From: a virus
Taxonomy: Duplodnaviria; Heunggongvirae; Uroviricota; Caudoviricetes
DNA: 27,714 nt
Virus record (IMG/VR): IMGVR_UViG_2778261035_000014
Reading direction: 5' to 3' (one strand)
Part shown: piece after piece, positions 4,644-27,714 of the stretch
How positions within the stretch are numbered: position 1 is the first letter of the stretch
How the letters are laid out: each line of letters begins with the position of its first letter
Made by a program: the position numbers and the translations under genes
Notes under the pieces: model-generated
Seen by the model: the letters and a program-made list of their open reading frames with translations, nothing else
What the model was told of the DNA's origin: nothing
The model's database searches: none

Positions 4644-4694
4644 ATTTTGTATCTCCATACAGTTTTTATAATCCGGCGAATATGCCGGGTTGAG

Positions 4695-5016: not shown

Positions 5017-5313
5017 TCGCTCTACGATACTTTTCTAATACAGCCAGCGGCAATGGCCTAACCTTCCCGTGAGAGAGTGCGGATTATTGGCTGTATGAGA
5101 AAAGGCCCGCACGGTGTTCACACAGGCACTTTAAGTAAGGAGAAGGAATGACAACGGCTGTTGTACGCACATACAATTTAAATCATCACCCTATGCAATT
5201 ATTTTAACACGAATGATTATCATTTGCAACAACAAAAACAATAACATGGCGAATTTAACGGCCCTCTCTCGTGTGGGCCAATTTACTACGTCATTTTTGA
5301 CGGAACGATGATT

Positions 5314-7482
5314 TTAGTCCGCAATCCCAAGGATGAGGTTATTCTGCGCCTGGTTGTTTTCCCTTATCTTGGTATCAATCAGACCGTTAATCGCACCATC
5401 ATTAACATTCACCTCAAGAGGCGCAAACTTGATCTCAGCTTCGCCAGTGACCGCAACAGGAATCGGCTGTCGTTGAACTATGCTATCAATTGTCGGAACC
5501 GTGAACGTTGGTTGCTGGGGTGTCAGATAGTTCAGGCCAGGAACATTCAACGCTAGTGCTGGATCGTTATACGCCATGCCTGAGCCGATATTGCTCGGAG
5601 CGGAACTATCCAGCCACGGGTAAATCTGCTTAAGCGTCTGACCGATGCTACGTGGATCAAAGCCGGTCTTTTCCTTAATCCAATCGGCAGCACCATTTGA
5701 GGAGTCATCTACCACGCTCGTATAAACCGCATCCGGCAATGTTGCGCCTTTCTTGAGTTCTTCACCGACTCGACCAGCGAAGGAAAGAATGTTGGTGGTT
5801 AGCTCACCAAGAGCAACGCCGAGGGCATCGGAAATTGGGATCAGTCCAGTCATATTCTGACGTAGAGTGTCAGTATTGGCAGCGTACTGCCCCAGGCCTT
5901 CAACAAACGAGGCTGAGAAGTGATCCGCAAGACTTGTTTGTACTCGGTTGTACTCAGCACCCAAAGCTGCCAGCTTATCAAGGTTGGCCTGCTGTGCATC
6001 AGATAGGGTCCATCCTTCAGAAGCGAGTTGATGCATACGGGCAATAACTTCATCACCTTCCCCACTGATACCCGCCATCAAGACCGATCCGTCATTGATC
6101 GCTTCCAAAAAATGACGCATGGAATTCTCTGTCCAGCCGAATTGTTTACCCAACTGCCGCACATAGGTAACGAAGGTCCCCATGTCCAATTTCTGAAGCT
6201 CGCCAATCACTTTTTGTGCTGTTCGCTGGTTGGTTTTGCTAAGAACTGCATTCACCAGATCGGCAAGTTCACCACCTCCGCTGAATGTTGTTACCCCTTG
6301 CTTGTTAGTTTTAAAGGAACCGGTATTCAGTAGCTCACCTGCTTTCTCGAAGTAATCCTTATTCATGGACGCATACTTATCTACGGTCAGGTCGTACCCT
6401 GTACGCTTCTGTACAACGTCATGGATAGCATTAAATTCAAGCTGGCTAATATCATACTGCCTTAATTGCTGCGCCTCTCTGGAGCGTTCAAGACTCCCCT
6501 GGAGGGTCTGACCAACACGAGCAACTCCCATTGAACCAATCAGGGATCCCCCTGCAATTACACCAGTGGCAGCGAGGCCACCATAACCACGTTCGCTACG
6601 TTCACGTCTCAAACGTTGAGCATTAACGCGCCCTGCTCGCTCTACTTTAGCCCGATCCTTAACCATCTGGCGGTTAATACGTGCCTGCCGCCTGGTTTCC
6701 AGAGTCGCTTTAGCAAGTTCATGGCGCATTTCTGCGATGGTATAACGCTGCTCGGAGTATCCCTTGGTAGCCTCTTTGATTGCCTGCACCGCTTTCATTT
6801 TGTCAGCCAGGCTGGCACCTTCGATATGGCTGATCGTTAAACTGGCGCGGCGTAGGGTGTCGTATGCAGTGCTCTGGCGCTTGAGGCTGGCTTCTTTCTC
6901 ACGCTGGCGCTTCTCTTCCAGGGCCATCGCCTTTTTGGTGGCTGCGATGTCAGCAGCAACAGCGCCGTGACCACGGTTCATTGCGTCAGTCTGACGGGAA
7001 ACAAGACCAGGATCGTAATGTTGACCGCCCATGTTAGGGTTGTAGGTCATCGCTCGTGATCTGGCTGCGGCCTGCACTTTTGCGGATATATTGGCTAAAC
7101 GGGCGTTTTGTCTCCGGATCTGTTCACTATCTGCCAATTGTTGAGCCTGCCCTCTGGCGTTAAGAGCCTGCATTTTCCGGGCGTGAGCCTCTTCCTGTTT
7201 TGCGATCTTTGCCTGGGCTTGGGCCTGGCGTTGTTGCTCTAGCGAAAGCTTTTGAGCCATTTTGAGGCGCTGTGTTTGAGCGCGGGCTGCTTCAAGGGCT
7301 GCTTTACCCTCACTCTGGGCGGTTCGCTTCTGAGCTTGCTCCAGCGCTTTAGCAGGTTTGGTAGTTAATTGCTGAAGTGACAGAATTTTCTTCTTCGCTG
7401 CTTCGTAACTAGAGCGGGAAATTTCCCAGCTTACGATATTGACGGTGCTCGTCACTATCTTGTTGGTTGTTCCACTACTCAT
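5314..7482 (-). CDS. Long coiled-coil protein with a glycine-rich hydrophobic segment (tape-measure-like, function unresolved)
   Basis: About 722 aa from the ATG at 7482 (MSSGTTNK...), which overlaps the upstream stop in ATGAGTAG. N-terminus is Ala/Gln/Lys/Arg-rich and helical. Central segment GYGGLAATGVIAGGSLIGSMGVARVG. Analogous to 15469-17310. Confidence 0.6.
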   Translation of the reverse strand: MSSGTTNKIVTSTVNIVSWEISRSSYEAAKKKILSLQQLTTKPAKALEQAQKRTAQSEGKAALEAARAQTQRLKMAQKLSLEQQRQAQAQAKIAKQEEAHARKMQALNARGQAQQLADSEQIRRQNARLANISAKVQAAARSRAMTYNPNMGGQHYDPGLVSRQTDAMNRGHGAVAADIAATKKAMALEEKRQREKEASLKRQSTAYDTLRRASLTISHIEGASLADKMKAVQAIKEATKGYSEQRYTIAEMRHELAKATLETRRQARINRQMVKDRAKVERAGRVNAQRLRRERSERGYGGLAATGVIAGGSLIGSMGVARVGQTLQGSLERSREAQQLRQYDISQLEFNAIHDVVQKRTGYDLTVDKYASMNKDYFEKAGELLNTGSFKTNKQGVTTFSGGGELADLVNAVLSKTNQRTAQKVIGELQKLDMGTFVTYVRQLGKQFGWTENSMRHFLEAINDGSVLMAGISGEGDEVIARMHQLASEGWTLSDAQQANLDKLAALGAEYNRVQTSLADHFSASFVEGLGQYAANTDTLRQNMTGLIPISDALGVALGELTTNILSFAGRVGEELKKGATLPDAVYTSVVDDSSNGAADWIKEKTGFDPRSIGQTLKQIYPWLDSSAPSNIGSGMAYNDPALALNVPGLNYLTPQQPTFTVPTIDSIVQRQPIPVAVTGEAEIKFAPLEVNVNDGAINGLIDTKIRENNQAQNNLILGIAD

Positions 7483-7858
7483 TGCCCCCCCCCTGCTGCT
7501 TGATGATATTGCCGTAACGATCAGGATCAGATTTTGCGAGTGCAGCAGCCGCTGCTTTAGCTTTCGCCAGCATTTCAGGATCGATATGGTCAGCGGTATG
7601 TGAGACAACCGGACGGCTATCAGCACCCAACGATTTTTTAATCCGTTGTTCAGCACCAAAGGTGTCTCGCATTGGTGAGAGGGCTTCGCCCTTTTTACCC
7701 GTGGGTGTGTCAGCCGGGGCTGATTTGAGCAACTCCGGATGTTGATCCAGAAAGTTATCGGTGACGCTCTTCAGATTGTCCCGCGCTTTTTGAAGTTCGT
7801 ATTCCTCCGGTGTCATGCCATGCATGGCGGCGAAAATCCGGTCTTTTATTGTGGTCAT
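7475..7858 (-). CDS. Hypothetical protein (127 aa)
   Basis: ORF with a GGAGA Shine-Dalgarno, translationally coupled to the downstream long gene. Contains the MRDTFGAE segment whose DNA (7655-7695) is about 85% identical to 3175-3217. Confidence 0.45.
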   Translation of the reverse strand: MTTIKDRIFAAMHGMTPEEYELQKARDNLKSVTDNFLDQHPELLKSAPADTPTGKKGEALSPMRDTFGAEQRIKKSLGADSRPVVSHTADHIDPEMLAKAKAAAAALAKSDPDRYGNIIKQQGGGNE

Positions 7859-8029
7859 TTTTATAGTATCTCCAGAGAAGGATGCTCCCGCCGATCAGGA
7901 CGTGACGAAGCGCCACCCAGCCCCAAGGCAGGAAAAAGATGTAATCAAGGTTCATTGGCCCCCGATGTGGGGTTGGGTCAGTGCATCGCAAGGCGATTAA
8001 CAGCAATTGCTGTTAACCCTTTCAGGGTG

Positions 8030-8608
8030 TTAGTAGTGCAGGCGTGGTGAACGTCGCTGCGGGTTCTTCTGTTTTCTGGCGACTGTTTCACGATAGGCCA
8101 CAAACAACGGATCAGTATGATCCGGCATTCGAGATGCCATTTCTTTTTCAGTGATTCCTTCACGCTTAAGCAGCGTCACCACGGTGAATAGAGGCAGTTG
8201 AAGGTCAGCACAGATTTTTGCCAGCATTGCGCCGGATTCGTAGTACATTCGGGCCATTCGCTTAGTGGCATACTGACTGGTATTGCTTATCTTACGACAG
8301 CGAGGATTCCACGAGTTATCGTAAAGGCCTTTTACCAGGTCATACGGCAAGCGTAGGAGCAGCGCCGTTTTGCCTGGGGTGTAACCATGCACGAGCATTT
8401 TTTTAGCAGTCTCGATCAGCGAAGAATCACGAGAGCGGGATTTGTAAAAACGTGACAAATCGGGGGTTTCAGCACCGGAGGTGTTTACCTCTGGTAAACT
8501 GCTTCGCACCGTAAGGGATTCAGCCGTCAGGCCGTTGGCTGTCTGGCTGATGCCAGTTACTTTCTCACACAATATTCCTCCAGTATCAAAAAGGGATCTC
8601 AGGATCAT
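8030..8608 (-). CDS. Hypothetical HTH-containing protein (possible regulator or small-terminase-like); start uncertain
   Basis: ORF of up to 199 aa whose 5' end overlaps the rep-like gene. HTH-like segment GAMLAKICADLQLPLFTVVTLLKREGI. No family recognised with confidence. Confidence 0.35.
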   Translation of the reverse strand: MILRSLFDTGGILCEKVTGISQTANGLTAESLTVRSSLPEVNTSGAETPDLSRFYKSRSRDSSLIETAKKMLVHGYTPGKTALLLRLPYDLVKGLYDNSWNPRCRKISNTSQYATKRMARMYYESGAMLAKICADLQLPLFTVVTLLKREGITEKEMASRMPDHTDPLFVAYRETVARKQKNPQRRSPRLHY

Positions 8609-9389
8609 CTTCATCGTAGTGATATACATCCGGCCCGTTAACTTGTTGCTTTACTGGCGCTGGTTCTGTTGCGGGTATATCGTCAGGCCGCATCTGTTCT
8701 CCTGGCTCACCCATATTGGTTTTGCCTTTCAGTTTCCATACAAGTTTGATCTCATCCTGCCAGGTTGTAGCACCATGGGATTGCGCCCAGCGTCGCGCCT
8801 CTGGAACCAAATCCCCACGAGAGGTAAACGAGTTGGCGAGCCATGGTATCCCGACAACATTTTCCCCAGCTGACTCACTCAGTGATGGATCATCACTATT
8901 GGATAAATCAACATCGACAGGAATATCCACAGCAGGTACGCCGTCTGGTTTTCCAGTAACAGGCGCGGCAGATGCCACCACGAAAGATTCCACAACAGGT
9001 TTTTGCTCATTCTTACCGCTCTCCTCGGTTTCCACTTTTCTATTACTCGCCTGCGCGGAATTATGATCGTCAAGAAAAACCATCAGCGATGGATCGAGTT
9101 CGACCGGAGAAATTTTGTGTGTACTCCCCTTCACTTCCTCAAAAGTGATCATTCCAGCTTCACGAAGCTTGTTCCTGAAATTGCGAACGGCTTCGGGCTT
9201 GCAGCCGCAACGTTTACCAATCGTGCCAACAGATTCGTAATAAGTTCTGCCTGTTTTGTCATAGCTGTAAACCAGAGATAACAAAATTTTCATGTTGCCA
9301 TTAATGGTCAGGCCGTTGTACTCGGTAAGGTCGAGAACGCTGTATTCAAGTTTTACAAAATCCTTACTGTCCCGGTTCTGTTTGCTCAT
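8586..9389 (-). CDS. Replication-initiator-like protein with N-terminal winged-helix DNA-binding domain
   Basis: 267 aa with a GGAGA Shine-Dalgarno. N-terminal segment KILLSLVYSYDKTGRTYYESVGTIGKRCGCKPEAVRNFRNKLREAGMIT is typical of phage or plasmid replication initiators. Acidic Pro-rich C-terminus. Positional analogue of 21938-22603. Confidence 0.55.
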   Translation of the reverse strand: MSKQNRDSKDFVKLEYSVLDLTEYNGLTINGNMKILLSLVYSYDKTGRTYYESVGTIGKRCGCKPEAVRNFRNKLREAGMITFEEVKGSTHKISPVELDPSLMVFLDDHNSAQASNRKVETEESGKNEQKPVVESFVVASAAPVTGKPDGVPAVDIPVDVDLSNSDDPSLSESAGENVVGIPWLANSFTSRGDLVPEARRWAQSHGATTWQDEIKLVWKLKGKTNMGEPGEQMRPDDIPATEPAPVKQQVNGPDVYHYDEDDPEIPF

Positions 9390-9567
9390 TCTGTTCTCCG
9401 TAAAGTGTCGCCTTGCTGGCTAATGCTGGTTTGATGTCTGGTGTGTTGTCGAAAATGTTCGCGGCAGTCTCCAAGATTTCATTACAGAGCCGTGCCAGGG
9501 GCTTGTCCTGCCTTTTGGCCTCAGCCAGTAGAGCCTGATAAACGTGCTGTTGAAATTTGATGTTCAT
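9364..9567 (-). CDS. Ribbon-helix-helix (CopG/Arc-like) DNA-binding protein
   Basis: 67 aa. MNIKFQQHVYQALLAEAKRQDKPLARLCNEILE is clearly homologous to the element-2 small ORF MNINFDSATYNALLNRAKAEGKSIPKLVNELLI. Overlaps the rep-like gene start. Confidence 0.55.
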   Translation of the reverse strand: MNIKFQQHVYQALLAEAKRQDKPLARLCNEILETAANIFDNTPDIKPALASKATLYGEQNEQTEPGQ

Positions 9568-9655
9568 TCAAGTTGTCCTCCTCGTTCTAGGTACAAAAGA
9601 CCTCCCGCCAGTGGTCGCCCAGAAGGCGAACCGGCTCAGGTTTTGTTCAGTGTTG

Positions 9656-10102
9656 TTAGGCTGCGGTTGCTGTCGGGAATTCGCCAGCCAGTGGATAACC
9701 GTAGGCTTCAAGTTCTTCTGCACCGCTGACAGCCACAAGCAGCATAATGATCTGCTCATGAGTCAGAGAAAGACCTAGCTTATCCAGATAAAGCTGTCGA
9801 TGGCCTTCCAGGATTGGACGAAGTATATCGGTCAACTCCATTCCAGCAGCGCGTTGATTACTCAGCGGCTTAAGGATGGTTTTAAACGCTCGCGCCTGCT
9901 TCGCCTTTTTGCGCTCCTGCTTCAGAATATGCAGGCAGACGGCAATCTGAGGAAGTCGGGCATGTACAGCGTCTGCCCCGCCGTTTCTACTAATGAAGGC
10001 CCACAAGGCTGATTTGGTGTATTTGCCGTTCAGGATGAGATCAGCGATCTGCTCGCCTGTCATAGTGGTCAGGTCGAGACGTTGGGATTTTGGTTTATTC
10101 AT
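9656..10102 (-). CDS. Hypothetical protein (148 aa), first gene of the leftward operon
   Basis: ORF with a GGAGA Shine-Dalgarno; no family recognised. Confidence 0.5.
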   Translation of the reverse strand: MNKPKSQRLDLTTMTGEQIADLILNGKYTKSALWAFISRNGGADAVHARLPQIAVCLHILKQERKKAKQARAFKTILKPLSNQRAAGMELTDILRPILEGHRQLYLDKLGLSLTHEQIIMLLVAVSGAEELEAYGYPLAGEFPTATAA

Positions 10103-10850
10103 TGGGTTCTCCGTTCTGTTAAAAGAATTATTCGCGGAGGTTCTATTTGTAACCCATTTTGTATTGCCGTGAGGTTGACAAGGAATGTCGTGATGACGGC
10201 AGAATTATTCGAGGATTCATAGGTAAATCATTACCCTACTAGAATCTATTGTATCAGATTTGTCTGTAAATAGCAATCATTATCATGTAGGATTTTATAA
10301 TGCATAATAATCACCATAACACTACAAGTTTACAAAATCTTTGTCAATAGTGCCAAGCCGTTCTATAACGCGTTCTGCGGGTACTTGTCACCATAGGAGT
10401 ACATACGTATCACCACCACCGTTTAAACGCCATAGAGAGGCTTTAAGGAGGTCTGTTAGTTAACCCGCGCCGCCCCGGAGTGAACCGGACAGATGCAAAG
10501 CAGTCCTCTACGCCGTGCTCCGCTCCACATATGGCGAACAAGTTCGCAGCTTCCACACAGAGTAAGAGCGTAGCTCTATGGCGTAGCCTGCCGGGTTACC
10601 CGAGTCACAGAGCGGAGCGATGTGTTAACGAGGGTTAGAAGGTCACGAGATGGCGTGGCTGTTTCACGTCAGCGAAGGTGAGCTTCTTACCACAAACATA
10701 TCTGAAGTGGCTGACCAGCCATTGCAGAGCGGAGCGATGCAGAAGCATCACTATTAAAACTAACAGAATGACCAACCGTCATTCCGTGCTCTCGACCTGG
10801 AGGTACTTTTCTTATCAGTTCTTTTATGGGGATTGTTATTTATTATTATT

Positions 10851-10932
10851 GTGCTCGAAAATCGACTACCCCCTACTCGAAAATCGTGCAGGTAGGTGCT
10901 CGAAAATCGAGGGGGTGGGTACACGAAAATCA
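10851..10932. repeat. Iteron-like array: four ~23-bp direct repeats with core CTCGAAAATCG
   Basis: gtgctcgaaaatcg (10851), tactcgaaaatcg (10875), gtgctcgaaaatcg (10896), acacgaaaatca (10921). Spacing is 22-24 bp, about two helical turns. The spacers ctaccccct and agggggtgg are complementary. Confidence 0.55.
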
Positions 10933-12213
10933 TGCAGGTATCACCGGGTGAGAATTTTCCAAGTCATCCACGCGACCAACGCACCGATGAAAACTTCCGG
11001 TTTGATATGTCCGCGTCATGCTTCAATGGCACAATCAACGGCAACACCTGAGGCGGTCCAAACACCTGATCCGCTCCGAGAATTGATCATCTCCCTCCCC
11101 TGCTTTCATCTGAAAGTACCGACCATTCTCCGCGCTGGCTGAAGATTGGCAACCCTATACTGATTTTCTGTCAAAATTTGGTGGATGATCTTTACCATTG
11201 GCTATCTTGTAAACAAAATAGATTAAATGCACCTCAAATAGCCCATAATCCGTAGTTAATCATGCTAAAGTGGTCACTATGCGTACAAATCAGAAGTCTG
11301 AACCTATGGGCGTTATGGTGTGATGTACATAACGAAGCCTTGCCAGCACTGGAAGCGTGAAATTTGGTGGCTGGTATCTGGATCAAGCAACACTCAATTT
11401 CTGAACCTTCGCTTCAAAAAAATAATAAAACAACACACAAAACCAAAACAGATGCCCTCTGGTGGCTGCTGTATCGCGCTGTGGGATGCTGTGGATTATC
11501 GGTATGTCAGTTCACGTTTGTGTAGAGATAACGCCGCTACGGGTTTCTGGTTGAGCGTAGGAGGGATTGGTGGGTTGGCTGTTTACATTGTTGTGGGAAA
11601 TGGTACGAAACAGTGGCGGCCTGGCTCGGTGAATATCACCAGGTGATGGCAGACCTTCAGCCCGTTGTGGTAACGTCGCCGTAGTAGCCCTATGTCTGCT
11701 GCGAATAGAAAAATGTGCTTTTATGGCATTTGATGCACTGTAAACTTCAAAGGCCTGAAACCTGAAATTGTGTGGTGACCAGCCAAACTCATCCAAAATC
11801 CTTGAACAAGAGAACTCACCTCAAATCCTCCTGAATGCTTTCCTTCTGTTGGTGAAATCGCTGTTGTGTACCACGCTTCGCATCAACGCTCCGAAAAGCA
11901 ATACCTGACTATTCCAGTCAAGTACATGTAAGATACAATATGTTAAATGGCTGTACAATTAGTGAACACAGGCACTTCAAAACATCAAGTTATCTCCCTT
12001 GCCTCAGCCCAAAGCAGCATTGTGTAACTGCACTGCTTGTTGCAGTGAGGCGTGTCGCTGAAGGCATCACGTAGCGATATTTGGCGAAGAAAAGCGCTTT
12101 TCACCGAGGGCCTGGGCTGACGGTCTAGCAGATCACCAACAGAGCTGGGGATATTTTCAACAGGAGAATGTAAACTTGGAAGATAAAGAGCCGGGACACT
12201 TACGGGGCAGGTT

Positions 12214-12429
12214 GTGGAAATGAAGAAAATTTTACTATTTGTTGTGGTACTGCTGCCGCTGGCGGCTCATGCAGGAAAAATCACCATAAGCAACCCCGAC
12301 GAACAAGAATTACAGGGCGGGAAAAGGCTTTGCACTTACGAAAACAGCATTTATCTGTTTACGCTGGTGACTCGCTCGCAATCCTGCCCTTTCTCAAAAA
12401 CGTTCGATACAAATGATAATGAAAAGTGA
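12214..12429 (+). CDS. Small secreted protein with two conserved Cys (paralog of 25846-26061)
   Basis: About 70 aa with signal peptide MKKILLFVVVLLPLAAHA. Conserved blocks GKITISNPDEQ, LCTYENS.YLFT, CPFSKTFDT are shared with the element-2 paralog. Confidence 0.6.
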   Translation: MEMKKILLFVVVLLPLAAHAGKITISNPDEQELQGGKRLCTYENSIYLFTLVTRSQSCPFSKTFDTNDNEK

Positions 12430-12442
12430 AACGGAATGTCTG

Positions 12443-12931
12443 CTAATGGGGTGCTTTGCCGATCATCTCCTTAAGATCTTTGAAGCGTTCTTTGATTATT
12501 CTTCCATTCTCGGCTAAACGATTCGCTTCAAACGCAGTGAATTGAGCAATATTTTCTATTTCTTCGCGGCTGATGCTCATAAAATTCTCATCAAGCTTAG
12601 AGAGCATATTTGTGACACCTTGTCTACTTTGTGTAAAGAAACCAAGGTTATCTCTGACACCCTTAAGAAGTTCTTTCTTACCATAAGGGTTCATATTTGT
12701 ACTCGTTTCTATAGACTTGATAAGCTCTTCCGTGTCACTACATATTCCACGGTAAACCAGTTCGACCTCACGAAGCTCTTTCACTGTATCAATTTTCATT
12801 TTCCTTAATGAATCATGCTCAGCATTTTTTCTTGATCGATAGGTGTTATACAGAGCAGTTATACTGACAACAAGTGCAATGAAAGAGAATAGAGCGCTAA
12901 AAAAAGGCAGCAATTCTTTTGACATTTTCAC
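12443..12931 (-). CDS. Membrane-anchored coiled-coil protein (cargo, unknown function)
   Basis: 162 aa with a GGAG Shine-Dalgarno. N-terminal TM helix LLPFFSALFSFIALVVSITALY, then a charged helical domain. Low GC. Confidence 0.6.
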   Translation of the reverse strand: MKMSKELLPFFSALFSFIALVVSITALYNTYRSRKNAEHDSLRKMKIDTVKELREVELVYRGICSDTEELIKSIETSTNMNPYGKKELLKGVRDNLGFFTQSRQGVTNMLSKLDENFMSISREEIENIAQFTAFEANRLAENGRIIKERFKDLKEMIGKAPH

Positions 12932-12953
12932 TCCAAATTTATTAGTCTAGAAG

Positions 12954-13652
12954 TTAACTTCTAAATTTTTGAAAACAACGTCGATCAATCTCTTGTGCCA
13001 ATCTAGTCCGCATCTCTCCATAGCTTAATCTTTCCATATCTGAGGCTATTTTCCAACCACAACCTTTGAAATTACATTTAATAATAGGAAATGGGACATA
13101 GTTATAGAGATCAACGCTGGAGTGTTGGCTAAGAAGGCCTCCACATTTAGGGCATCTCATGTGAAGATTTATTAAAGAGTACCCACTATCACCTAATGCT
13201 TTAGTCCATTCCCAAGAAACTATCATTTCATAAATATTATCCGAAGTATAATGCAAAAAACTGCCCTCTTGTCCTGTAGCTTTCGCTGCAATACGACGGC
13301 GCATTACAAATCCAACAGTAGGTAAAATTGCCAATAATAAAATCGATAAAATGAGGAGCATCCATAAGGGCATTGTGACTGGGAAGGTAAGGATGTCCAT
13401 TAACCAATGGAAGAACTGCTTAATGTAATTCCATAGCCACACAACGACGGCGATCCCACTTCCTCCAGTGACAAGTGCAACGATAACGCCCGATATGCTG
13501 TCTTTGCTAAGGTCTTTCAACCATGCCATAGAAATTCTTCTTATTAAGCTATTCTTTATGCTCAATTTTACAGCGAACCAGATTTTAGGCAATAGGAGCC
13601 ATAAAGCGCCGTGATGGGTACATCCATCGATCAGCGCCTTCAGGCGTGTCAT
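12954..13652 (-). CDS. Membrane protein with C-terminal 4-Cys zinc ribbon (cargo, unknown function)
   Basis: Up to 232 aa; the start may instead be the internal ATG at 13529. Two or three hydrophobic helices, then CPKC-(x25)-CNFKGC. Sits 22 nt upstream of the 162-aa gene, so probably an operon. Confidence 0.55.
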   Translation of the reverse strand: MTRLKALIDGCTHHGALWLLLPKIWFAVKLSIKNSLIRRISMAWLKDLSKDSISGVIVALVTGGSGIAVVVWLWNYIKQFFHWLMDILTFPVTMPLWMLLILSILLLAILPTVGFVMRRRIAAKATGQEGSFLHYTSDNIYEMIVSWEWTKALGDSGYSLINLHMRCPKCGGLLSQHSSVDLYNYVPFPIIKCNFKGCGWKIASDMERLSYGEMRTRLAQEIDRRCFQKFRS

Positions 13653-13977
13653 CAGATTTTCAGCGGTAACGATCAGTGAGTCAGGTGTGCATTTTCGTAT
13701 ACACGAAACGGGGTAGAGCCTGCCGCTTTCCCGGACAGGTTAGTAATCCCATCATATCGCCTGTTTATCCCGCGCTAAGGTCGTCGTAAGCGCCGCTGTT
13801 TCAGGAATGGTTTATAGCCATAGTGAAAGGCTTTGTTTTCTTGTTGGACTATCGCGGTAAGACACTGGAACGACCGCCAGCGTTTTGATAAGCTTCCTGA
13901 TCACTACTCACCAAATCGCGGTAGTTACCAAGGTAGAACGTCGAGAGGGTTCTCAACAGCGCTTACAGAGCGCCTCC

Positions 13978-14064
13978 CTCTAAGCACCGGAAACATAAAG
14001 ATTTTTTAGCTGATTTTAAGCGTAAAAAATCGCTGGAGCGGGCGAAGGGAATCGAGGAAACCCA
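13978..14064. repeat. Inter-element att junction: 16-bp motif (13978-13993) and 22-bp core (14043-14064)
   Basis: Same two motifs as at 786-832 but in the opposite order and with 49 nt between them. Confidence 0.6.
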
Positions 14065-15468: not shown

Positions 15469-17310
15469 TTAACTTGGTGCTTGCCCAGACAGAGCCGCCA
15501 ACGTGAAACTACGTTCAAAATCTTGTTGGATACTTCCCACTTTGTAATCGAGGTATGATCCAAGCTGACTACCATCAGGGGCGATATTCACATCCACCTT
15601 GCTTTCCGGCACGTTTACGACGATGTTCGGTGCATACGTCATAGATGGGGTAGTGTTCAGATCACGGCTAACGTTCTGTTTCAGGGATTGCACGTTATCA
15701 GATGGGCTTGCATAGTTCTGAATTGCAGTTCCGCCAGTCGTTGGCTTGTCTTCCGTGCCAGGAATAGGATCTAAGCCTAAAGCACTACGACCCCAATCAA
15801 CCATACCACCTACAAACGAGTCCTTATAATACATACCGGACGAATCAAGGTTTTCATGCTTGTTCTCTGGGTTGATATTTTGGTATGCAGCAGTAAGCCA
15901 CGATACAGCACCAGCAAAGGCGCTCATCATTTCAGCCGTTGAGCTTCCAAGTTCTTTAAACAGAGGATTCAAATCTTTCAACATTTGCGCCCACTCTTCA
16001 CCAGCTTGAGCATCGAACTCTTCACCAAATCCAGTCATGATAGCTTTCTTACTACCTTCCCATGCCATATTCATATTTGCCTGTACCGCTTGCAGACGTT
16101 CGGCAGCGTCCAGATCCGCTTGTGTATAGGTGGCATTGGCCTTTTGCATCTTAACGATGGTCTTGTTTAGCTCTTCACCATTACGACTAAAGGCACCACG
16201 GAAATATTGCAAATCATTGCCCAGGTCTTCAAGGATGTGCCCGATTTCTTGATCTGATAATCCACGGCGTTCACCTTCTTTCACTACAGCGCCCAGGAAA
16301 CCTAAAGGATCAGTCTGGAAACCTTTAACCTGTTCAGGTGACCAGCCATATTTATTAAGGATGTTATCGACGGCACCATTACCGCCAGCCCAGCGACCTT
16401 TCTTAGCGTCCCATTTGGTATTCCCTACGGATTCACCTAAACGTTCCTGAACGTCTTTAAGGTTGTCTTGACGTTGGTCTACGGAACTATCAACACCGTG
16501 TTCTAAGCCGTACTGGTTGAGAGCTAACAGGGCGTTAGTGTTTACGTTGACAGCCTTTGCCTTGCGGTTAGTGTCTGTGATCTTGCTTGCCTGATCGGTT
16601 ACGGTATTGAATATCGCAGCACCGCCGAAAGTAGCAGCAGTGAGAGCGGCACCGCCTACCATTGCACCGACACCAGCGCCCATATGACCACCTTTAAGCT
16701 GTTTAGCCATATGTGGGTATTTACCGCCATCAGCCGCCACCTGGCGAGCTTTTACAGCAGCCGCACGGCGTTCTAACGTGATACGATCACGGATCAGGTG
16801 ATTCATCTTAGCCTGACTTATAGCGCCTTTCTCATACGCTGCCGTTTGTGCTTTGATGTATTGCAATGTTTTGTAGTACTGGGCGCTGTTCATACCGTCG
16901 CCCATACGCCCTTTTTTGATGCCTTCAAGCTGGCGGAAAGCTTGCTGGCGTTTAATCTCTGCCTTCTCTGCTATTGTCGCTTTAGCGCGGATCTGTTTAT
17001 CGGCAGCTATAGCGGCTTTAGCCTTCGCTTTAGCTTCTGCCTTTGCCACCTTATCAGCGTTCTTCTTGTCTGTTTGAGCTTGCTTGTCTGACGCTTTAAC
17101 ATCAGCTTTAGCCTGTGCAGCTTTACGAGCCTTTACCAGATCATGAGCATCGTCTATAGCTTTTTTAGCCTTCTTCCCTTTCAATGTTGGATTGGTCAGG
17201 TTTTCCATTTCTTTTTGAAATTTCTTCCCTGCATCGCGTGCTTTCTGCAATGATGCAAAATCAACTTTAAATACAACCTTGTTTGTTAAGGTTGAGATGT
17301 TTAAATCCAT
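15469..17310 (-). CDS. Long coiled-coil protein with glycine-rich hydrophobic segment (tape-measure-like, function unresolved)
   Basis: 613 aa with an AAGGA Shine-Dalgarno. TolA-like KAKAEAKAKAKAAIAADKQIRAK helix, then GGHMGAGVGAMVGGAALTAATFGGAAIF. Lies downstream of the capsid and HTH genes, unlike element 1. Confidence 0.6.
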   Translation of the reverse strand: MDLNISTLTNKVVFKVDFASLQKARDAGKKFQKEMENLTNPTLKGKKAKKAIDDAHDLVKARKAAQAKADVKASDKQAQTDKKNADKVAKAEAKAKAKAAIAADKQIRAKATIAEKAEIKRQQAFRQLEGIKKGRMGDGMNSAQYYKTLQYIKAQTAAYEKGAISQAKMNHLIRDRITLERRAAAVKARQVAADGGKYPHMAKQLKGGHMGAGVGAMVGGAALTAATFGGAAIFNTVTDQASKITDTNRKAKAVNVNTNALLALNQYGLEHGVDSSVDQRQDNLKDVQERLGESVGNTKWDAKKGRWAGGNGAVDNILNKYGWSPEQVKGFQTDPLGFLGAVVKEGERRGLSDQEIGHILEDLGNDLQYFRGAFSRNGEELNKTIVKMQKANATYTQADLDAAERLQAVQANMNMAWEGSKKAIMTGFGEEFDAQAGEEWAQMLKDLNPLFKELGSSTAEMMSAFAGAVSWLTAAYQNINPENKHENLDSSGMYYKDSFVGGMVDWGRSALGLDPIPGTEDKPTTGGTAIQNYASPSDNVQSLKQNVSRDLNTTPSMTYAPNIVVNVPESKVDVNIAPDGSQLGSYLDYKVGSIQQDFERSFTLAALSGQAPS

Positions 17311-17664: not shown

Positions 17665-18693
17665 TTACGCTACTGTGATCTGTACAGTGAAGCCTACGCC
17701 GTGGTTTACAACCATCTGGCTATTCTCGGTAACTACGTTTACAGCGTCGTTACGTGCTGGGCTAAATGCATAGCTGTAATATTCAGCCGATCCAGAGTTC
17801 AGAAGGTCGAACGTTGAAGAAGGAGCGCCGAAAATGTTCTGATAGACGTTAGAGCCTTTAGCGAACTTCGGAACAGCCACCGCATCAGAAGTCATATGAG
17901 CCAGCAGCAGCGGATCGGTAACTTTGATCAGATCAATGTTAGTGCCTGGAATAGTGAAGGTAGTCACACCTGGCAGCAGGGAGCGCACACTATAAACGAT
18001 GTTTGCGTCATCGGTAGGGCTTGCATACTGGAACGCGTTAACCATGCCAGCACTGTAACGGATAGCGTTAAATGCAGCAGGTTTACAGAATACAACGATA
18101 CGCTCTACAGCAGCCGCCTGGCTTTGTGCTTTAGTAATAACGTCTGTATGCATCTGATCGAATTGCTGGAACACCATAGAAGGCGTGGTGCTTGATGCGT
18201 CGATGGTTGCAGTCAGCGGAACAGCACTAAACAGATCGCCCCACTGAATCAGCACATCGTCAGTTTTAGGGGTGTAGGTGCGACCACTAAACAGGGAAGC
18301 AGCCAGTACGCTTTCTTTAGTACGCTGGAAAGCAATGTGGTGCTTAGCAACATATTCCGCGTAGATATCTGTCAGAGTCTCTTCAACGGTAGCGCCTGGT
18401 TTACGTTTGCCTTGAACGTCTTGCGGCTTAATCATATCTTCACGCAGGAAGTAGGGGATCTCTACTAAAAATTCTTTACCCTGTTCACGTTTAGTCACGT
18501 TATGTTCAGAAGAGAAACGAGAGGTTTCTTTGTTGAACAGAGATTCGTTAGTTTCCACCAGTTGGCTAACAGCCACTTTATGAGAACTCACACCTACCGG
18601 ATCAGTGAAGTCCAGAGTAGTTAACAGGAAGTTGCGAGAGTCGTGCAGACTAAACAGCGGAGCCAGATCGACGGATTCATTACCAATAATCAT
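17665..18693 (-). CDS. Major capsid protein, lambda gpE-like (second copy)
   Basis: 342 aa with an AAGGA Shine-Dalgarno. Paralogous to the 3264-4280 product and preceded by the small partner gene. Confidence 0.7.
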   Translation of the reverse strand: MIIGNESVDLAPLFSLHDSRNFLLTTLDFTDPVGVSSHKVAVSQLVETNESLFNKETSRFSSEHNVTKREQGKEFLVEIPYFLREDMIKPQDVQGKRKPGATVEETLTDIYAEYVAKHHIAFQRTKESVLAASLFSGRTYTPKTDDVLIQWGDLFSAVPLTATIDASSTTPSMVFQQFDQMHTDVITKAQSQAAAVERIVVFCKPAAFNAIRYSAGMVNAFQYASPTDDANIVYSVRSLLPGVTTFTIPGTNIDLIKVTDPLLLAHMTSDAVAVPKFAKGSNVYQNIFGAPSSTFDLLNSGSAEYYSYAFSPARNDAVNVVTENSQMVVNHGVGFTVQITVA

Positions 18694-18711: not shown

Positions 18712-19083
18712 TTAAGATGTGAATACAGTGTTAAAACCAGCCATCTGGAAGCCTTTAGCAGCCAGAGCAGCAATAGCGGCTTCTTTAATAGCGCCTTCAA
18801 CATTCAGAGCATCAGACTTGATGCAAACCAGTCCGGCATTGCTACGCAGCACGTTAACGGTTTTAGCGTCGCCAGCGGATACCGCATCAGACACAACCAC
18901 AAGAACATCGCCGCCGCTTACATATTCAGCGCCGTTACTGGTAATCAGATCGCCGCATTCCACATCAACCGCCAGATCAACGGTAAAAGATTGCACACAA
19001 CCGAACTCATCAGTTGCATAGCTCACGATATCGGTAAATGATTTGCGAACTGGAAACAGATCGCTCATATTAATAATAGCCAT
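18712..19083 (-). CDS. Putative head decoration protein (gpD-like by size and synteny)
   Basis: 123 aa, 18 nt upstream of the capsid gene. Positional and size analogue of 4299-4643. Confidence 0.45.
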   Translation of the reverse strand: MAIINMSDLFPVRKSFTDIVSYATDEFGCVQSFTVDLAVDVECGDLITSNGAEYVSGGDVLVVVSDAVSAGDAKTVNVLRSNAGLVCIKSDALNVEGAIKEAAIAALAAKGFQMAGFNTVFTS

Positions 19084-20175: not shown

Positions 20176-20388
20176 TCAATTCTTTTCGGTTGTTAACTGC
20201 CACTCACCAAATACGCAATTACCATCTAAAACAATTGTTTGTTCGTTACCGTTATCATCGGTTACGTGCATAAGGCGGGTGTAAGTGTCGAGTAAGCCAG
20301 TATACACTTTACCTACTGTGAAACATTGGCACGCTTTACCTTCTTCTGTAAGTGCCAGTAAACGGGCACGTTTGGTTTTTACTGTCAT
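20176..20388 (-). CDS. Hypothetical small protein (70 aa)
   Basis: ORF overlapping the upstream gene by 4 nt in a tightly packed operon. Confidence 0.5.
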   Translation of the reverse strand: MTVKTKRARLLALTEEGKACQCFTVGKVYTGLLDTYTRLMHVTDDNGNEQTIVLDGNCVFGEWQLTTEKN

Positions 20389-22933: not shown

Positions 22934-23917
22934 AAAAAACTCCTTATTTAGATAAAAGAAAAACACACCTTGCAGCCTGACGGCTCAAAGTGCAGTGTTC
23001 TGTGATTTGATTATTTAGATGGAGAGAGATGTTTCTCCCCTCCCTACTTACAATACTACATAACGGCGGCTTTGTCAACCCTCTTTTATAAAAAATTTGA
23101 TCATTTTCAATTTCTTATAATTTTTCTTAGCTTTTTGTGCTGCCTACTCTGGTACAATTCTTCCCTGTTGCCTAAAACGCTCTCAATCGCACTCTGACGG
23201 GGTTTTGATAAAAACAATACATTCCCTTATGTAGAGGTTGTTTATCTCGTCAGAGGCTTATTTAAGGGGCTTATTTTTGATTTATCAGATGATGGAAAGA
23301 TGGTGGATAGATAAATTCTGATTTCAGACATCTTATAAAATACCTGCAAAGTTCTCAGAAGCTCTGTAACGAGCTAATCTATTACCGCTAAGGTGTTTCC
23401 CTTACATTACCCTGTTTAGCTCGCCTACGGCTTGATTTAAGCGGTAGAATCTTATTTAACCTTCAACTACAAAAACCATTCTTTCTTTTTTGTTGTTGGT
23501 TGTTTTGTCATGTTATGCGTTAGCATCCCCAAAGGGTAACGCGACACTAACAACCATTCGCTTACGCTCAGGTTATTGCACAAGTAAATTTCAATCGTTA
23601 GATGGTAGTTAGTTAATTATCGTTCTGCGCACAGCGCAAGACTATTAGCCATACGCAAGCCGTAGGCTATTTGCACATAGTAGATTACATATTCGTTGTG
23701 AGCGGAAAGCGAACATAGATCAGCTAACTACTAACAAAAAACAAAAAACAAAAACTATCTGTTATGACAAGCATCAGTCTAACTTGTGCAAGGTTCTGGC
23801 GAATGCCAATAGATTAAGGGATAGTCGAAGACTCCCTAACGGGTATCCCTATAATTATTCTTTAAAAGATAAAAGAATTTATAAAAGATAGTTTAATTGT
23901 AGTTTAATTATAGTATT

Positions 23918-23969
23918 GTAGGAACTCATTTCCTGGGTAGGTAGGAACTCATTTCCTGGGTAGGTAGGG
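23918..23969. repeat. Tandem direct repeat, 2.3 copies of 23-bp unit gtaggaactcatttcctgggtag
   Basis: Exact copies at 23918-23940 and 23941-23963, then a partial copy; preceded by duplicated agtttaatt. Confidence 0.7.
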
Positions 23970-25092
23970 AAACCGCACTATACACTGGTAAGTGTCTTGC
24001 ACAGAAAAAGGTATCAAAAATGTCTAAAGCCCCTTTAGATAAAAATGATACCTTTATACATGCGCTAATAGCGCGCATAACAATAACCTACTAACAACTA
24101 ACTAACTAAAAAGTAAGAAGATGTTGTTATGATTAGTGTATCGCTCAACGCTCACATCTATCTCTGATCTATAAATTGGTAACTGTCTAACAACAACAAA
24201 CAACTATTACATGCAAAACAGCCTTACGGCTGCATAGAGATGATTGGCTAACCTTCGGTTGCTACGCATAGCCATATCTATGAGAAGATAAAAGAGATTT
24301 AAAGGTTAGTTTGTTGTTGATCTAACCAACATTCGCTATACGCTCATACAATCTACATTACACATTAACTATCAAACTACAATCTAACGATATATAGAAT
24401 CTATATCCACTCATTATCATTCGTGCAATGATCACATTGATAGTTCGCTATACGCTCACCTCAATTATGTGCAATGGCTTTTCAGGCAACGCGTTAGCGT
24501 ATTCTTGCGAATGCCTGATCTCCAAAGCCGGAATTAAACAGCAAGAATATCTCGTGTAAATCGTAGAATATTCATAGTTTATTCCGTGTAATTCCATACT
24601 AAAAAATGCAATGAAAAGTAGCTTCAAAGTGCAATTCTTACTTTCTTCACTTTTACATTATCATCAGCAAAGCCTTATGTAATGCGGCATATAGCGTATC
24701 ACTGCAAAATTGTTGCTCAATAAATGTTCTACCATTTGTTGAACGAATGTTCACTCGTGCACATCTCAAAGAGAATAATCATTTGTCATACAATTCCATA
24801 ATAAGAATTATTATCACTTATAATGCAATACAACCCAGATTCGATACACTTTAGCAAAGTGTATTCTGTAACTTACTGATCTTTATATACTCAGGCATAT
24901 ATAGACCATTTATCGCTATTTATTGGCTATTTTTCATCTGCCGAAAATAAATTTCTTGACAAGACAAATCATTTGTGAACAACTTGCATAAAATAAATTT
25001 ACTTATAAATCAACAAGATATTTCATATTTGTGCCTGCATCAGATCGGGAGGCTTGATCTTTGTGTTCAACGATGGTGACGGACGCACCTAA

Positions 25093-25172
25093 ATTAAATC
25101 GGTTTTAATCGCCTTTAATACCTTTTAATCAGTCTTAATCACCTTTTAATAGCCCTTTAATCACTTTTGATC
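25093..25172. repeat. About eight phased ~10-bp repeats with core TTTAATC
   Basis: ggttttaatc / gcctttaata / ccttttaatc / agtcttaatc / accttttaat / agccctttaatc / acttttgatc. About 10-bp periodicity, ending 100 nt upstream of the recombinase start. Confidence 0.6.
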
Positions 25173-25273: not shown

Positions 25274-25852
25274 ATGAAAGGTATTAGCCAAGCCCTCAAG
25301 AATGTAGACGAGGTAAAAACAGTAGCAGCAGAGCTACAGCGCAATAGTAAAACCAACCTGTTTTATTGCTTATGGGTGTTTATGTATGAAAGCGGGTTGC
25401 GTGTCTCTGACGTACTCAAGCTAAAATATCAGGATGTTGAGGGGCAATCTCATTTGAAGATAAAGCAGGAGAAAACCGGAAACGTAGTAAGGCCAAAAGT
25501 TACCCCCGCCATGTTGTCAGTGGTGGCACAACGCAAGGCAGAGCAAACGAAGATGCCTGTAGCTACAGATTTTATTTTCAGTGCTGGCACATTACGCAGT
25601 AAAGGCGAAGCCGTAACCCGTAACACGGTATTCACTGAATTTGGGAAAATGGGACGTAGAGCCGGATTCTCTAATGTGGGATGCCATACGCCACGTAAAA
25701 GTCGGGGCCGTGTGATGTTTGATGCAGGGGTAGCTATAGAGACAATAGCCCATTTCCTGGGACAGACAGATCCGCGCTCTACTATGTATTACATCGGGTA
25801 TGGTCAGGATGTGCAGGACGATTTAGCAGAGGAGTTTTCTTTAGAATGGTGA
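25274..25852 (+). CDS. Small tyrosine recombinase, FimB/FimE-like (catalytic domain only, 192 aa)
   Basis: AAGGAG Shine-Dalgarno 9 nt upstream. Motifs ESGLRVSDV (Arg), HTPRKSRG (His-x-x-Arg), and C-terminal LGQTDPRSTMYY (Tyr). Size and motif spacing resemble my recollection of FimB. Stop overlaps the next start in ATGGTGA. Confidence 0.65.
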   Translation: MKGISQALKNVDEVKTVAAELQRNSKTNLFYCLWVFMYESGLRVSDVLKLKYQDVEGQSHLKIKQEKTGNVVRPKVTPAMLSVVAQRKAEQTKMPVATDFIFSAGTLRSKGEAVTRNTVFTEFGKMGRRAGFSNVGCHTPRKSRGRVMFDAGVAIETIAHFLGQTDPRSTMYYIGYGQDVQDDLAEEFSLEW

Positions 25853-26061
25853 TCCAAATTAAAAGCTTATTTGTGCTGACGTTGGCGCTATTGCCTGTCC
25901 TATCGAATGCCGGACAGATAACAATGGTCAACCCACAGGAAGAACAGACGGAGAATGGAAAAACGCTGTGCACGTATCAGAACAGCAATTATCTGTTCAC
26001 TTACGTAACTAAGGGGAAATGCCCTTATACAAAAACATTTGACACTTCCGCCAAAGAATAA
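25846..26061 (+). CDS. Small secreted protein with two conserved Cys (paralog of 12214-12429)
   Basis: 71 aa with signal peptide MVIQIKSLFVLTLALLPVLSNA. Conserved blocks GQITMVNPQEE, LCTYQNSNYLFT, CPYTKTFDT. Confidence 0.6.
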   Translation: MVIQIKSLFVLTLALLPVLSNAGQITMVNPQEEQTENGKTLCTYQNSNYLFTYVTKGKCPYTKTFDTSAKE

Positions 26062-26066: not shown

Positions 26067-26486
26067 TTAACGGGATTTTGGATAAATGCTGTTTCTGCAA
26101 TTAATGCAATACCAACTCGCGGAGTATTGACCAACGGCACGCGAAAAAACCATGTGTGTTTGCACCTTATCAACTTCAAAGCATTTGGGACAGTAGGCTG
26201 TTTCATCGCCTTCTTTCCAGTAAAGTCCATCTTTGAAAGTGAAGGTGTGCTTATCCTTTAGCTGATCTTCAAGCTGCTTATTTTTCTGTTCAGCCTCAAA
26301 AAGAAGTGCTTGGGTTGTGATTACTTCCATCTTCACACTTGCAAGTTCGCTCATGAGGTTAGCAAGCTCAAGTTTAAGCGTTGCTTTATCAAGTTCGCCG
26401 CCATCATCAGCGAGCTTCTTTGCAATACCTACAGCTTTGTCAATGATACCTACAGCCGCCGCTGTACTTGCCAACACTCCAGACAT
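26067..26486 (-). CDS. Coiled-coil protein with C-terminal zinc ribbon (cargo, unknown function)
   Basis: 139 aa. Central heptad-like region, then CPKC-(x24)-CINC. Last gene of the leftward three-gene operon. Confidence 0.55.
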   Translation of the reverse strand: MSGVLASTAAAVGIIDKAVGIAKKLADDGGELDKATLKLELANLMSELASVKMEVITTQALLFEAEQKNKQLEDQLKDKHTFTFKDGLYWKEGDETAYCPKCFEVDKVQTHMVFSRAVGQYSASWYCINCRNSIYPKSR

Positions 26487-26508: not shown

Positions 26509-27144
26509 TCACTTTATAAAAGCTAAAGCCCTAAGAACGGTTTTTAACCGCGTTACCTGCTCAGGCTTTTCAAGTTCATCCAAATTAACATTAATTTTAT
26601 CTAAACAGATGGCTATACGTGACATAACCTCGCCATGAATCTGCTTCAAACCTTCGCCATATTGAGTGGCAATATGGTAAGTCTGTTCTAAATTAAAACG
26701 ATGGATATCTTTCTGCGTTTCATGAAATATGGTTTGAAGTTTAGCTAAGTCCTCTAAAACCTGATTATTCATTCTGAAAGTATCAACCAGACTCCTTGCT
26801 GAGCCATAACAAATAACAATTGCCTTCATTGTCTCTTCATTAACAGAAGTTAATGCGAAAGAGTTGCTTTCATAGAATGAGAAATAATTTTGAGTCAACG
26901 GAAAGATGCTTTCAAAAGGTTTACCACCTTCATAATTTTCAAGAGAATCGTAAATTCTGGCTTTATAAAGTTCCAGAAGCGTTTCGACTTCTGCTTTTAT
27001 TCCAATCAAGACACTCTTTTGCTTATCCTTTGCTTCATTAAATGAAGCTCTGTCTTGCCTACGTCCATCGATCAGAGTACCCCACAGGGTGAACAATCCC
27101 CCTATCAAGGCACCAACTAAACCAGAAATCAGTTCACTTCCCAT
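26509..27144 (-). CDS. Membrane-anchored protein (cargo, unknown function)
   Basis: About 211 aa from the ATG at 27144 (ORF-track start is TTG at 27159). N-terminal TM helix ELISGLVGALIGGLFTLWGTLI. Begins 16 nt after the upstream stop. Confidence 0.55.
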   Translation of the reverse strand: MGSELISGLVGALIGGLFTLWGTLIDGRRQDRASFNEAKDKQKSVLIGIKAEVETLLELYKARIYDSLENYEGGKPFESIFPLTQNYFSFYESNSFALTSVNEETMKAIVICYGSARSLVDTFRMNNQVLEDLAKLQTIFHETQKDIHRFNLEQTYHIATQYGEGLKQIHGEVMSRIAICLDKINVNLDELEKPEQVTRLKTVLRALAFIK

Positions 27145-27159
27145 GTTGCCCCCTAACAA

Positions 27160-27714
27160 TCATTTTTGACAGCAATGATCCCATTGCTCAGTAGTCCTTG
27201 CAACTCGATCACTGATTGCAAAGTTATTCAGCAACGAATCATAAGCGTACACTTTGCTTTTATCATCTGCTGTCATCAACTTACCATCAGGTTTCAACTT
27301 TGGCGAAAGCAAGTATGTACCGTTTAAACGGTTAGCTTTGAAGCTATCAACATGCAACGTTACTTCAGCACTTCCCAGCACACGTAAAGAACCTATTCTG
27401 CCATTCTTTATTGTTGCTATCGAATACTGACATAGATAAGTTTTCACAATTGAAGCTGCGTTTTTTTCGGCAATCTTCGCTGATGGAGAATCCAAAGAGG
27501 ATTTGGGGATTGAACTATGAAGAGAAGATGACGGATAAGAGTAATGTTGATAAGTAGAAGATGAGCGCGAACTACCTCCACATGTTTTCCATGCCGCAAT
27601 ACACGAATTACCACACGGTATACCTTTCTTGCAATTCTTCGCGTATGCAGAGAACGACAACCCAGCTAATAGAAATATACCAATGGTTATCCTAACCAGC
27701 GAAGACCAACCCAT
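27160..27714 (-). CDS. Secreted Cys-rich and Ser-rich protein (cargo, unknown function)
   Basis: 184 aa with the ATG exactly at the window edge. Signal peptide with AYA cleavage site, then CKKGIPCGNSCIAAWKTCGG, a Ser-rich linker, and a C-terminal domain. Confidence 0.5.
   Translation of the reverse strand: MGWSSLVRITIGIFLLAGLSFSAYAKNCKKGIPCGNSCIAAWKTCGGSSRSSSTYQHYSYPSSSLHSSIPKSSLDSPSAKIAEKNAASIVKTYLCQYSIATIKNGRIGSLRVLGSAEVTLHVDSFKANRLNGTYLLSPKLKPDGKLMTADDKSKVYAYDSLLNNFAISDRVARTTEQWDHCCQK

Follow-up and report, generated by a model that had tools for sequence, protein, structure and literature searches.

Small exported phage proteins are a classic, sparsely sampled means of control over entry into infected or lysogenised cells. 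Small exported early proteins of virulent phages are classically exclusion factors (T4 Sp, T4 Imm, T5 Llp), and small exported pre-late proteins of such phages are documented to act in superinfection exclusion (as T4 Sp and Imm do), in the masking of receptors (T5 Llp) or in signalling for lysis inhibition (T4 RI). T4 Spackle (Sp), a periplasmic protein of superinfection exclusion, is an inhibitor of the tail lysozyme gp5, and T5 Llp, phi80/N15 Cor and Streptococcus TP-J34 Ltp are small exported proteins of phages or prophages that block receptors or tape-measure-mediated DNA entry. Here we analyzed a small secreted two-cysteine protein that is encoded twice, at positions 12220-12429 and 25846-26061, in the IMG/VR virus record IMGVR_UViG_2778261035_000014, a stretch of 27,714 nt which we call the window. 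We observed that the two genes lie in tandem islands of an E. coli chromosome and have homologues in virulent phages of the Stephanstirmvirinae, and we tentatively consider a role of the protein in blocking phage entry.

Among the described systems, Spackle offers the best functional analogy, as this small protein is produced by a virulent myovirus before the late ones, has a signal peptide that is cleaved off and goes to the periplasm. However, Spackle is helical, whereas the window protein is predicted to be all-beta, and the two have no sequence or fold relation; no Spackle chain was found among the matches listed in the PDB sequence and fold searches. Llp, Cor and Ltp are lipoproteins with a lipobox cysteine at position +1, while the window proteins show A-x-A followed by glycine and have their first cysteine about 20 residues further in. 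The surroundings of the gene resemble the defence-cargo hot spots of P4-like elements and PICIs (phage-inducible chromosomal islands), which likewise form the variable end of an integrase-bearing island near its attachment (att) site and carry changing cargo. In contrast to such cargo, the small gene is not variable but conserved within its lineage and common to the islands and the presumed helper phage group, and neither this gene nor its neighbours match PADLOC models convincingly. The closest counterpart is gp142 of phage phAPEC8 (phrog_4641), which resembles the window copies in length, signal peptide, two cysteines and acidic tail and is a true homologue. The gp142 copies are located in the replication cluster of virulent 150-kb phages, whereas the window copies occupy the accessory end of integrated 13-14 kb islands, and the window-type copies, unlike the phage copies, usually follow a small tyrosine recombinase gene.

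Two copies of a small secreted protein gene

The features of the two genes are as follows (lengths in amino acids, aa).

25846-26061, plus strand: small secreted protein gene, copy 2 (element 2); open reading frame (ORF) for a 71-aa precursor, WP_069914052 (hypothetical protein)
25846-25911, plus strand: putative signal peptide of copy 2, 22 aa (...LSNA/GQ), from sequence features, family statistics and low pLDDT
25912-26058, plus strand: mature domain of copy 2, 49 aa, with Cys42 and Cys59 and five predicted beta strands (AlphaFold2 model)
12220-12429, plus strand: small secreted protein gene, copy 1 (element 1); 69-aa precursor, WP_000722188
12220-12273, plus strand: putative signal peptide of copy 1, 18 aa (...AAHA/GK), from family statistics

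The product of the ORF at 25846-26061 is MVIQIKSLFVLTLALLPVLSNAGQITMVNPQEEQTENGKTLCTYQNSNYLFTYVTKGKCPYTKTFDTSAKE and that of the ORF at 12220-12429 is MKKILLFVVVLLPLAAHAGKITISNPDEQELQGGKRLCTYENSIYLFTLVTRSQSCPFSKTFDTNDNEK. An earlier, sequence-only reading of the window had placed the second gene at 12214-12429; the gene itself stands, its start probably does not, the likely start codon being ATG 12220 (MKKILL..., as in RefSeq) and GTG 12214 lying two codons upstream. The similarity claimed in that reading is formally significant, since BLASTP of the mature parts gave 29 of 53 identities (55%) and 79% positives at an E value of 3e-21, and the proposed blocks G(K/Q)IT..NP.E, LCTY(E/Q)NS.YLFT and CP(F/Y)(S/T)KTFDT are found in both products. 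Both also possess the signal peptide that had been assumed, a basic and hydrophobic leader with an A-x-A end (AHA/GK and SNA/GQ), and both genes, as had been noticed, adjoin and converge with cargo genes, with stop-to-stop distances of 13 nt (12429 versus 12443) and 5 nt (26061 versus 26067). At the DNA level only 44 nt of the two genes can be aligned and the flanks are unrelated, so that the conservation between the copies resides in the protein. Judged from their sequences, the two ORFs are real genes and paralogues.

Homology searches returned hundreds of relatives, namely 403 homologous 90%-identity clusters at E <= 0.01 (5.8 billion proteins searched) and 78 families at 50% identity when the profile was run against 1.84 billion representatives. 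Matches named by organism came from Escherichia, Klebsiella, Citrobacter, Enterobacter, Raoultella and Buttiauxella and were all 'hypothetical'; the source annotations of the homologues read 'hypothetical protein' or 'Secreted protein' only. In the alignments the family motifs are all present: the leader, a conserved pair of cysteines, (G)xIT at the N-terminus and CPYxKTF. Using hmmscan, both copies matched phrog_4641 (function unknown); the E values were 1e-8 and 1e-7, and the matches spanned positions 1-67 and 11-68 of the 68 in the profile. Pfam contained no family for either product, NCBIfam nothing meaningful (sole match PorU, E 0.058), and no PADLOC model matched either copy. Profile matches to three long repeat proteins (P0153, P0189 and P0196) were dismissed on inspection as compositional or repeat matches. 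The label 'gram-negative pili assembly chaperone' carried by the KP2025 copy is unsupported, as the window copies contain no Pfam chaperone domain. In Cedecea colo (locus L020) two copies of the small gene occur 2 kb apart (7001-7144 and 8988-9134).

We compared 48 distinct homologues with regard to export. Alanine occupies position -1 in 46 of them and alanine or serine position -3 in 45, and the leaders of 47 contain a hydrophobic core. Glycine is found at +1, the n-region contains lysine or arginine, and a lipobox cysteine after the cleavage site is absent. The mature part comprises about 50 aa, contains exactly two cysteines in 45 of the 48 sequences and ends in an acidic C-terminal tail (median net charge of the mature part -4). 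The first cysteine is at mature position 20-21, counted from the cleavage regions LSNA/GQ and AAHA/GK. This pattern suggests a soluble protein that is exported by the Sec pathway and probably resides in the periplasm.

AlphaFold2 was run twice, with each window copy once as target, and gave a confident five-strand fold for both. In the model of copy 2 (m30eb02fe66a8) the mature part has a pLDDT of about 90, while the leader has low pLDDT and no secondary structure; in that of copy 1 (meb54a0af03ef) the mature part reaches 93-96 with the same five-strand topology. The mature domain is thus predicted to be a small all-beta barrel of five strands. A fold search with the predicted model found no significant match to any solved fold, including the OB-fold toxin B subunits and other named small beta-barrels, and a PDB sequence search with the family profile gave noise only. 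Between genera the mature domain shows 80-90% identity, and it is very conserved in Escherichia, Klebsiella, Citrobacter and Enterobacter. Pairwise ratios of nonsynonymous to synonymous substitution rates (dN/dS) for the mature part are 0.07-0.20, at dS values from 0.4 to saturation, and are higher for the less constrained leader; purifying selection on the gene is strong. Our literature search gave no match for the protein accessions, nor for exclusion in Phapecoctavirus. Although uncharacterised and without a match to a known fold, the family is of a familiar kind, its members being small exported accessory proteins of phages or satellites.

Tandem islands and their link to Stephanstirmvirinae

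A point absent from the sequence-only reading is that the small gene is shared with Stephanstirmvirinae. When the window proteins were used as tblastn queries, homologues (E 1e-9 to 1e-4) came up in phages of Klebsiella and Citrobacter with genomes of 140-150 kb, and with a Klebsiella phage copy as query 147 phage records matched, almost all of them Stephanstirmvirinae of about 150 kb, among them phAPEC8, ESCO5, phi92-like Justusliebigvirus and Klebsiella FKP3. The phage homologues (the phAPEC8 gp142 family) are 34-49% identical to the window copies. The position of the gene in the phages is fixed, between a gene for an RdgC-like recombination exonuclease and exonuclease/DNA-polymerase genes in the replication (early/middle) cluster, and a metagenomic relative has the equivalent position in contigs of about 150 kb.

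The window can be placed in the E. coli chromosome in the interval from ygeQ to tRNA-Gly/actS/xdhA (e.g. in strain RM10740). A 22-nt copy of the tRNA-Gly 3' end, TGGAGCGGGCGAAGGGAATCGA, is found at 786-807 and again at 14034-14055, and the tRNA-Gly itself is located immediately past the window end. Because of these repeats and the tRNA beyond the end, the window contains two tandem islands of 13-14 kb at tRNA-Gly, each with its integrase first.

786-807, plus strand: left attachment site (attL) of element 1, 22-nt copy of the tRNA-Gly 3' end
14034-14055, plus strand: att repeat at the junction of elements 1 and 2, identical 22 nt
about 808 to 14055: element 1, placed by integrase start and att repeats
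14056 to past the window end (27714): element 2, placed by integrase start and att repeat

In each island, genes for an integrase, a major capsid protein (MCP), decoration-like and tape-measure proteins and a Rep-initiator-like protein are found, and the islands contain iterons. Terminase, portal and tail-tube genes were found in neither island by annotation of the window and by Pfam and PHROG scans. Several of these genes point to the same phage group as the small gene.

15469-17310, minus strand: tape-measure-like protein of element 2, 613 aa; tblastn to Stephanstirmvirinae, phrog_16051 (E 6e-67)
5314-7482, minus strand: tape-measure-like protein of element 1; tape-measure profiles phrog_5255 and phrog_36805 (E 3e-10)
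17665-18693, minus strand: MCP of element 2 (lambda gpE-like); closest phage relatives are MCPs of Stephanstirmvirinae and of Pseudomonas myoviruses
18712-19083, minus strand: decoration-like gene of element 2; decoration-then-MCP order as in phage FKP3
3264-4280, minus strand: MCP of element 1; weak Pfam matches Phage_cap_E and HDPD, phrog_29, tblastn to phAPEC8 gp114
4299-4658, minus strand: decoration-like gene of element 1, adjoining the MCP gene
20176-20388, minus strand: 70-aa ORF, homologue of phAPEC8 gp032 (tblastn 42% identity, E 5e-13); phrog_27862

The C-terminal 380 aa of the tape measure of element 2 matched 134 phage records by tblastn, all of them Stephanstirmvirinae (31% identity, E 1e-45); residues 233-613 align with the phage tape measures, whereas the lysine/alanine-rich N-terminal region of about 230 aa does not. 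Both gpE-like MCPs count these phages among their nearest relatives; that of element 2 is 25% identical over its full length to the closest phage MCPs. Host-genus counts coincide between the phage records with the small gene and those with this tape-measure type (Escherichia, 107 in both). The islands have the features of phage satellites, namely an integrase, att repeats, a Rep-like initiator and few morphogenesis genes in common with a phage group. As the small gene, the MCP, the tape measure and the gp032-like ORF are common to both, the simplest reading is that the islands are satellites of Stephanstirmvirinae-type phages, on which they would depend as helpers. IMG/VR contains only three such loci, and since all of them are embedded in larger contigs they are uninformative on packaging. 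Our literature search found no paper on Stephanstirmvirinae satellites or on islands combining a capsid and a tape measure of their own, and the islands may form an undescribed satellite family of virulent phages. This context may outweigh the protein itself, as it would mean a possible new family of satellites, with their own capsid and tape measure, of virulent phages of the type used in therapy. Members of the small-protein family are common throughout the Enterobacteriaceae, with Klebsiella and E. coli lineages among the carriers, and in the phage subfamily, which is in therapy development (phAPEC8, phi92 and Klebsiella Justusliebigvirus relatives).

We further analyzed the distribution of the small gene among such islands. 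Of 5426 complete E. coli genomes, 393 carry MCP2-type islands, and DNA of the small gene is detectable in 76 genomes (copy-1 type) and 103 genomes (copy-2 query). Two related islands, at srsR and at tRNA-Thr, contain integrase, baseplate protein, tape-measure, MCP and decoration genes; the small gene is absent from both in searches by hidden Markov model and tblastn. Hence it is a backbone gene of one lineage rather than part of the family core. The 'backbone' factor of the sequence-only reading holds to that extent: the gene is part of the element backbone rather than of the cargo, as its pairing with a recombinase gene in 12 of 23 loci indicates (see below), while it is no core gene of the whole element family. 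The srsR and tRNA-Thr islands have an extra 'phage baseplate protein' gene beside the tape measure (L045 9112-9825 and L046 9114-9827), and one of them encodes a serine recombinase in the position of the tyrosine recombinase.

Possible functions of the small protein

By analogy with the systems described above, the small protein may be a periplasmic superinfection-exclusion or entry-blocking factor, a possibility that we favor without holding it to be established. The precursor would be exported by the Sec pathway and cut after A-x-A by signal peptidase I, and the mature part of about 50 aa would fold in the periplasm into the five-strand beta-barrel, in which the conserved cysteine pair most likely forms a single stapling disulfide. 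The island copy would then be the satellite-borne version of an early/middle gene of virulent Stephanstirmvirinae (phAPEC8 gp142), and the protein might block one genome-entry step of incoming phages, with either the tail-tip/tape-measure apparatus crossing the periplasm or a conserved envelope component needed for that step as its target. In the islands the small gene stands beside the accessory hot spot, and its transcription runs counter to that of the structural and replication genes. Genes for lysogenic conversion and exclusion are typically found in such places, for instance P2 old/tin/fun and lambda rex/sieB/bor, and the tape measure is the tail part that traverses the periplasm. We favor exclusion or entry block because of this position at the conversion end, the separate orientation and the fact that a tape measure is also encoded by the island. 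If exclusion is true, strains carrying an island would resist Stephanstirmvirinae phages, and the 50-aa domain would represent a compact new inhibitor of phage entry.

Several points weigh against such a role. No sequence or fold similarity to known exclusion proteins was found in Pfam, NCBIfam, PADLOC and the PDB sequence and fold searches. The high conservation across genera suggests a conserved target rather than an arms race with tail parts. As related islands with capsid and tape-measure genes do without it, the small gene is dispensable for the life cycle of the element. No convincing sigma-70 promoter was found upstream of the gene, the promoter and terminator scans giving scores at or below shuffled expectation. 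Finally, a satellite that excludes its own helper would limit its own transfer. In a variant that we consider decidedly improbable, the islands replace the capsid shell and tape measure of the helper, and the small protein is a helper-derived periplasmic gatekeeper that would block DNA entry by tails with a helper-type tape measure or tail tip but not by particles with the diverged tape measure of the satellite; in this way the satellite would protect its host and at the same time favor its own spread.

The fixed position in nearly all Stephanstirmvirinae records would also be expected of a function that is useful in every infection, and the protein could accordingly be a periplasmic factor of the lytic cycle, acting in lysis timing in the antiholin-like manner of T4 RI, in restraint of endolysin or spanin or in conditioning the envelope for the burst, with the satellite keeping its own copy because it shuts down helper gene expression. 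Purifying selection and conservation across genera would be in keeping with a target that is itself conserved, for example a holin domain or peptidoglycan, and satellites of virulent phages do manipulate lysis, as PLE LidI exemplifies. However, in phAPEC8 neither the endolysin gene (gp067) nor that of the Rz-like spanin (gp121) is close by, the island gene is transcribed separately from, and in the other direction than, the genes whose induction together with the helper is expected, and no similarity to RI or any lysis regulator emerged from the Pfam and fold searches, so that we regard a lytic-cycle role as unlikely, though it deserves serious consideration. The same conservation of the mature domain in Escherichia, Klebsiella, Citrobacter and Enterobacter, the acidic C-terminal tail (median net charge -4) and the location at the accessory end of the island would suit a conversion factor that acts on a conserved component of the host envelope (a periplasmic protease, a peptidoglycan enzyme, a porin or the capsule/LPS (lipopolysaccharide) export machinery) and benefits the host by stress or serum resistance or an altered surface, unrelated to phage entry. 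This is quite improbable, since strictly virulent phages carry the gene, which indicates a role in infection rather than long-term benefit to the host, and the fold searches gave no similarity to known inhibitors (Ivy, MliC/PliC, ecotin). That the ORFs are chance open frames with a meaningless similarity has a negligible probability. They are short (about 70 codons) and have no Pfam or NCBIfam family name, but the E value of 3e-21 between the copies, the hundreds of homologues with conserved cysteine and signal-peptide features, the dN/dS of about 0.1 at saturated dS and the confident predicted fold all contradict chance, and the conservation data already refute it.

Two further explanations involve the genes on either side of the small gene.

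25274-25852, plus strand: 192-aa tyrosine recombinase, in an operon with copy 2; Pfam Phage_integrase (E 1e-15), phrog_216
26067-26486, 26509-27159 and 27160-27714 and beyond, minus strand: convergent cargo of element 2, three ORFs with matches only to phrogs of unknown function
12443-12931 and 12954-13652, minus strand: two convergent cargo ORFs of element 1; membrane segments, C-terminus zinc-ribbon-like

The comparison covered 23 chromosomal copies: both window copies, a single one out of five near-identical Klebsiella places that an exact look-up had given, and 20 from species genomes. In 12 of the 23 a tyrosine recombinase of about 190 aa is encoded directly upstream on the same strand; the pair is kept although the recombinases diverge to 26-30% identity, with stop and start overlapping or nearly abutting, and the recombinase has weak matches to tyrosine-type DNA invertases of the FimB/FimE class. 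The small gene might thus be the output of a phase-variable switch or part of a maintenance module, which is very improbable: it is intact and under purifying selection where the recombinase has decayed (L022 and L025) or is absent (element 1) and is therefore independent of it, no recombinase adjoins the phage copies, and no convincing inverted repeats flank a promoter region. The sequence-only reading had also considered a partner of the cargo. As immunity protein, sensor or antitoxin, the small protein would fit the tight convergence in both window copies (5 and 13 nt), the membrane segments or signal peptides of several cargo proteins and the renewed pairing of the small gene with a cargo2a homologue at locus L019. 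Yet the cargo of the two window elements is unrelated, the genes immediately downstream in the 23 loci fall into many unrelated clusters, seven loci show another co-oriented ORF in the cargo position, and the virulent phages carry the gene without such neighbours. Synteny largely refutes a partnership with the cargo, which is now hardly credible. The probability left over from all these readings goes to some other function. An arbitrium-like peptide signal was ruled out, as the exported part is a folded, conserved 50-aa domain and the setting is a Gram-negative periplasm.

Further features of the islands

In element 2, the stop codon of the recombinase gene overlaps the start of copy 2 by 7 nt (ATGGTGA), and the two genes are translationally coupled. 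The recombinase consists of a catalytic domain alone, with a size like that of Xer or FimB/E proteins; its Xer- and invertase-like NCBIfam matches (FimB/FimE class) are below cut-off, and its closest solved structure is the XerC-like protein 4a8e. The remnants at L022 and L025 are shortened. Upstream of copy 1 no recombinase remnant was found in the window; relative to locus L018, 570 bp of unrelated DNA are present instead. An invertible promoter was considered and rejected, because a repeat search around the recombinase gave no convincing flanking inverted repeats.

The cargo consists of small membrane, coiled-coil and zinc-ribbon proteins (e.g. with CPKC...C..C motifs) and one cysteine-rich protein with a signal peptide. 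The cargo proteins had no Pfam, NCBIfam or convincing PADLOC match, the lone marginal hit among the neighbours being AbiEi (E 0.009), and they are candidates for uncharacterised defence or abortive-infection genes. The translation of the extra co-oriented ORF that follows the small gene at seven loci looks doubtful.

At the left edge of the window a truncated ygeQ is located (1-594, minus strand), which in strain RM10740 adjoins an IS3-family element. In both elements the replication genes are separated from the small-gene region by some 2 kb in which no ORF is credible, at 10172-12214 and at about 22970-25170; Rfam gave no matches for these two stretches or for the whole window. In element 1, the stretch includes several copies of the iteron-like repeat ctcgaaaatcg around 10855-10930 and a duplicated motif, cagagcggagcgatg, at about 10609 and 10727. 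The noncoding part at 11086-11648, in which we found no convincing ORF, is 77.6% conserved compared to the Pseudenterobacter locus L018 and about 75% compared to L024, and could be an origin, a packaging site or an RNA. In element 2, the 23-nt unit GTAGGAACTCATTTCCTGGGTAG occurs in perfect tandem duplication at 23918-23963, and a near-palindrome follows at 24007-24055.

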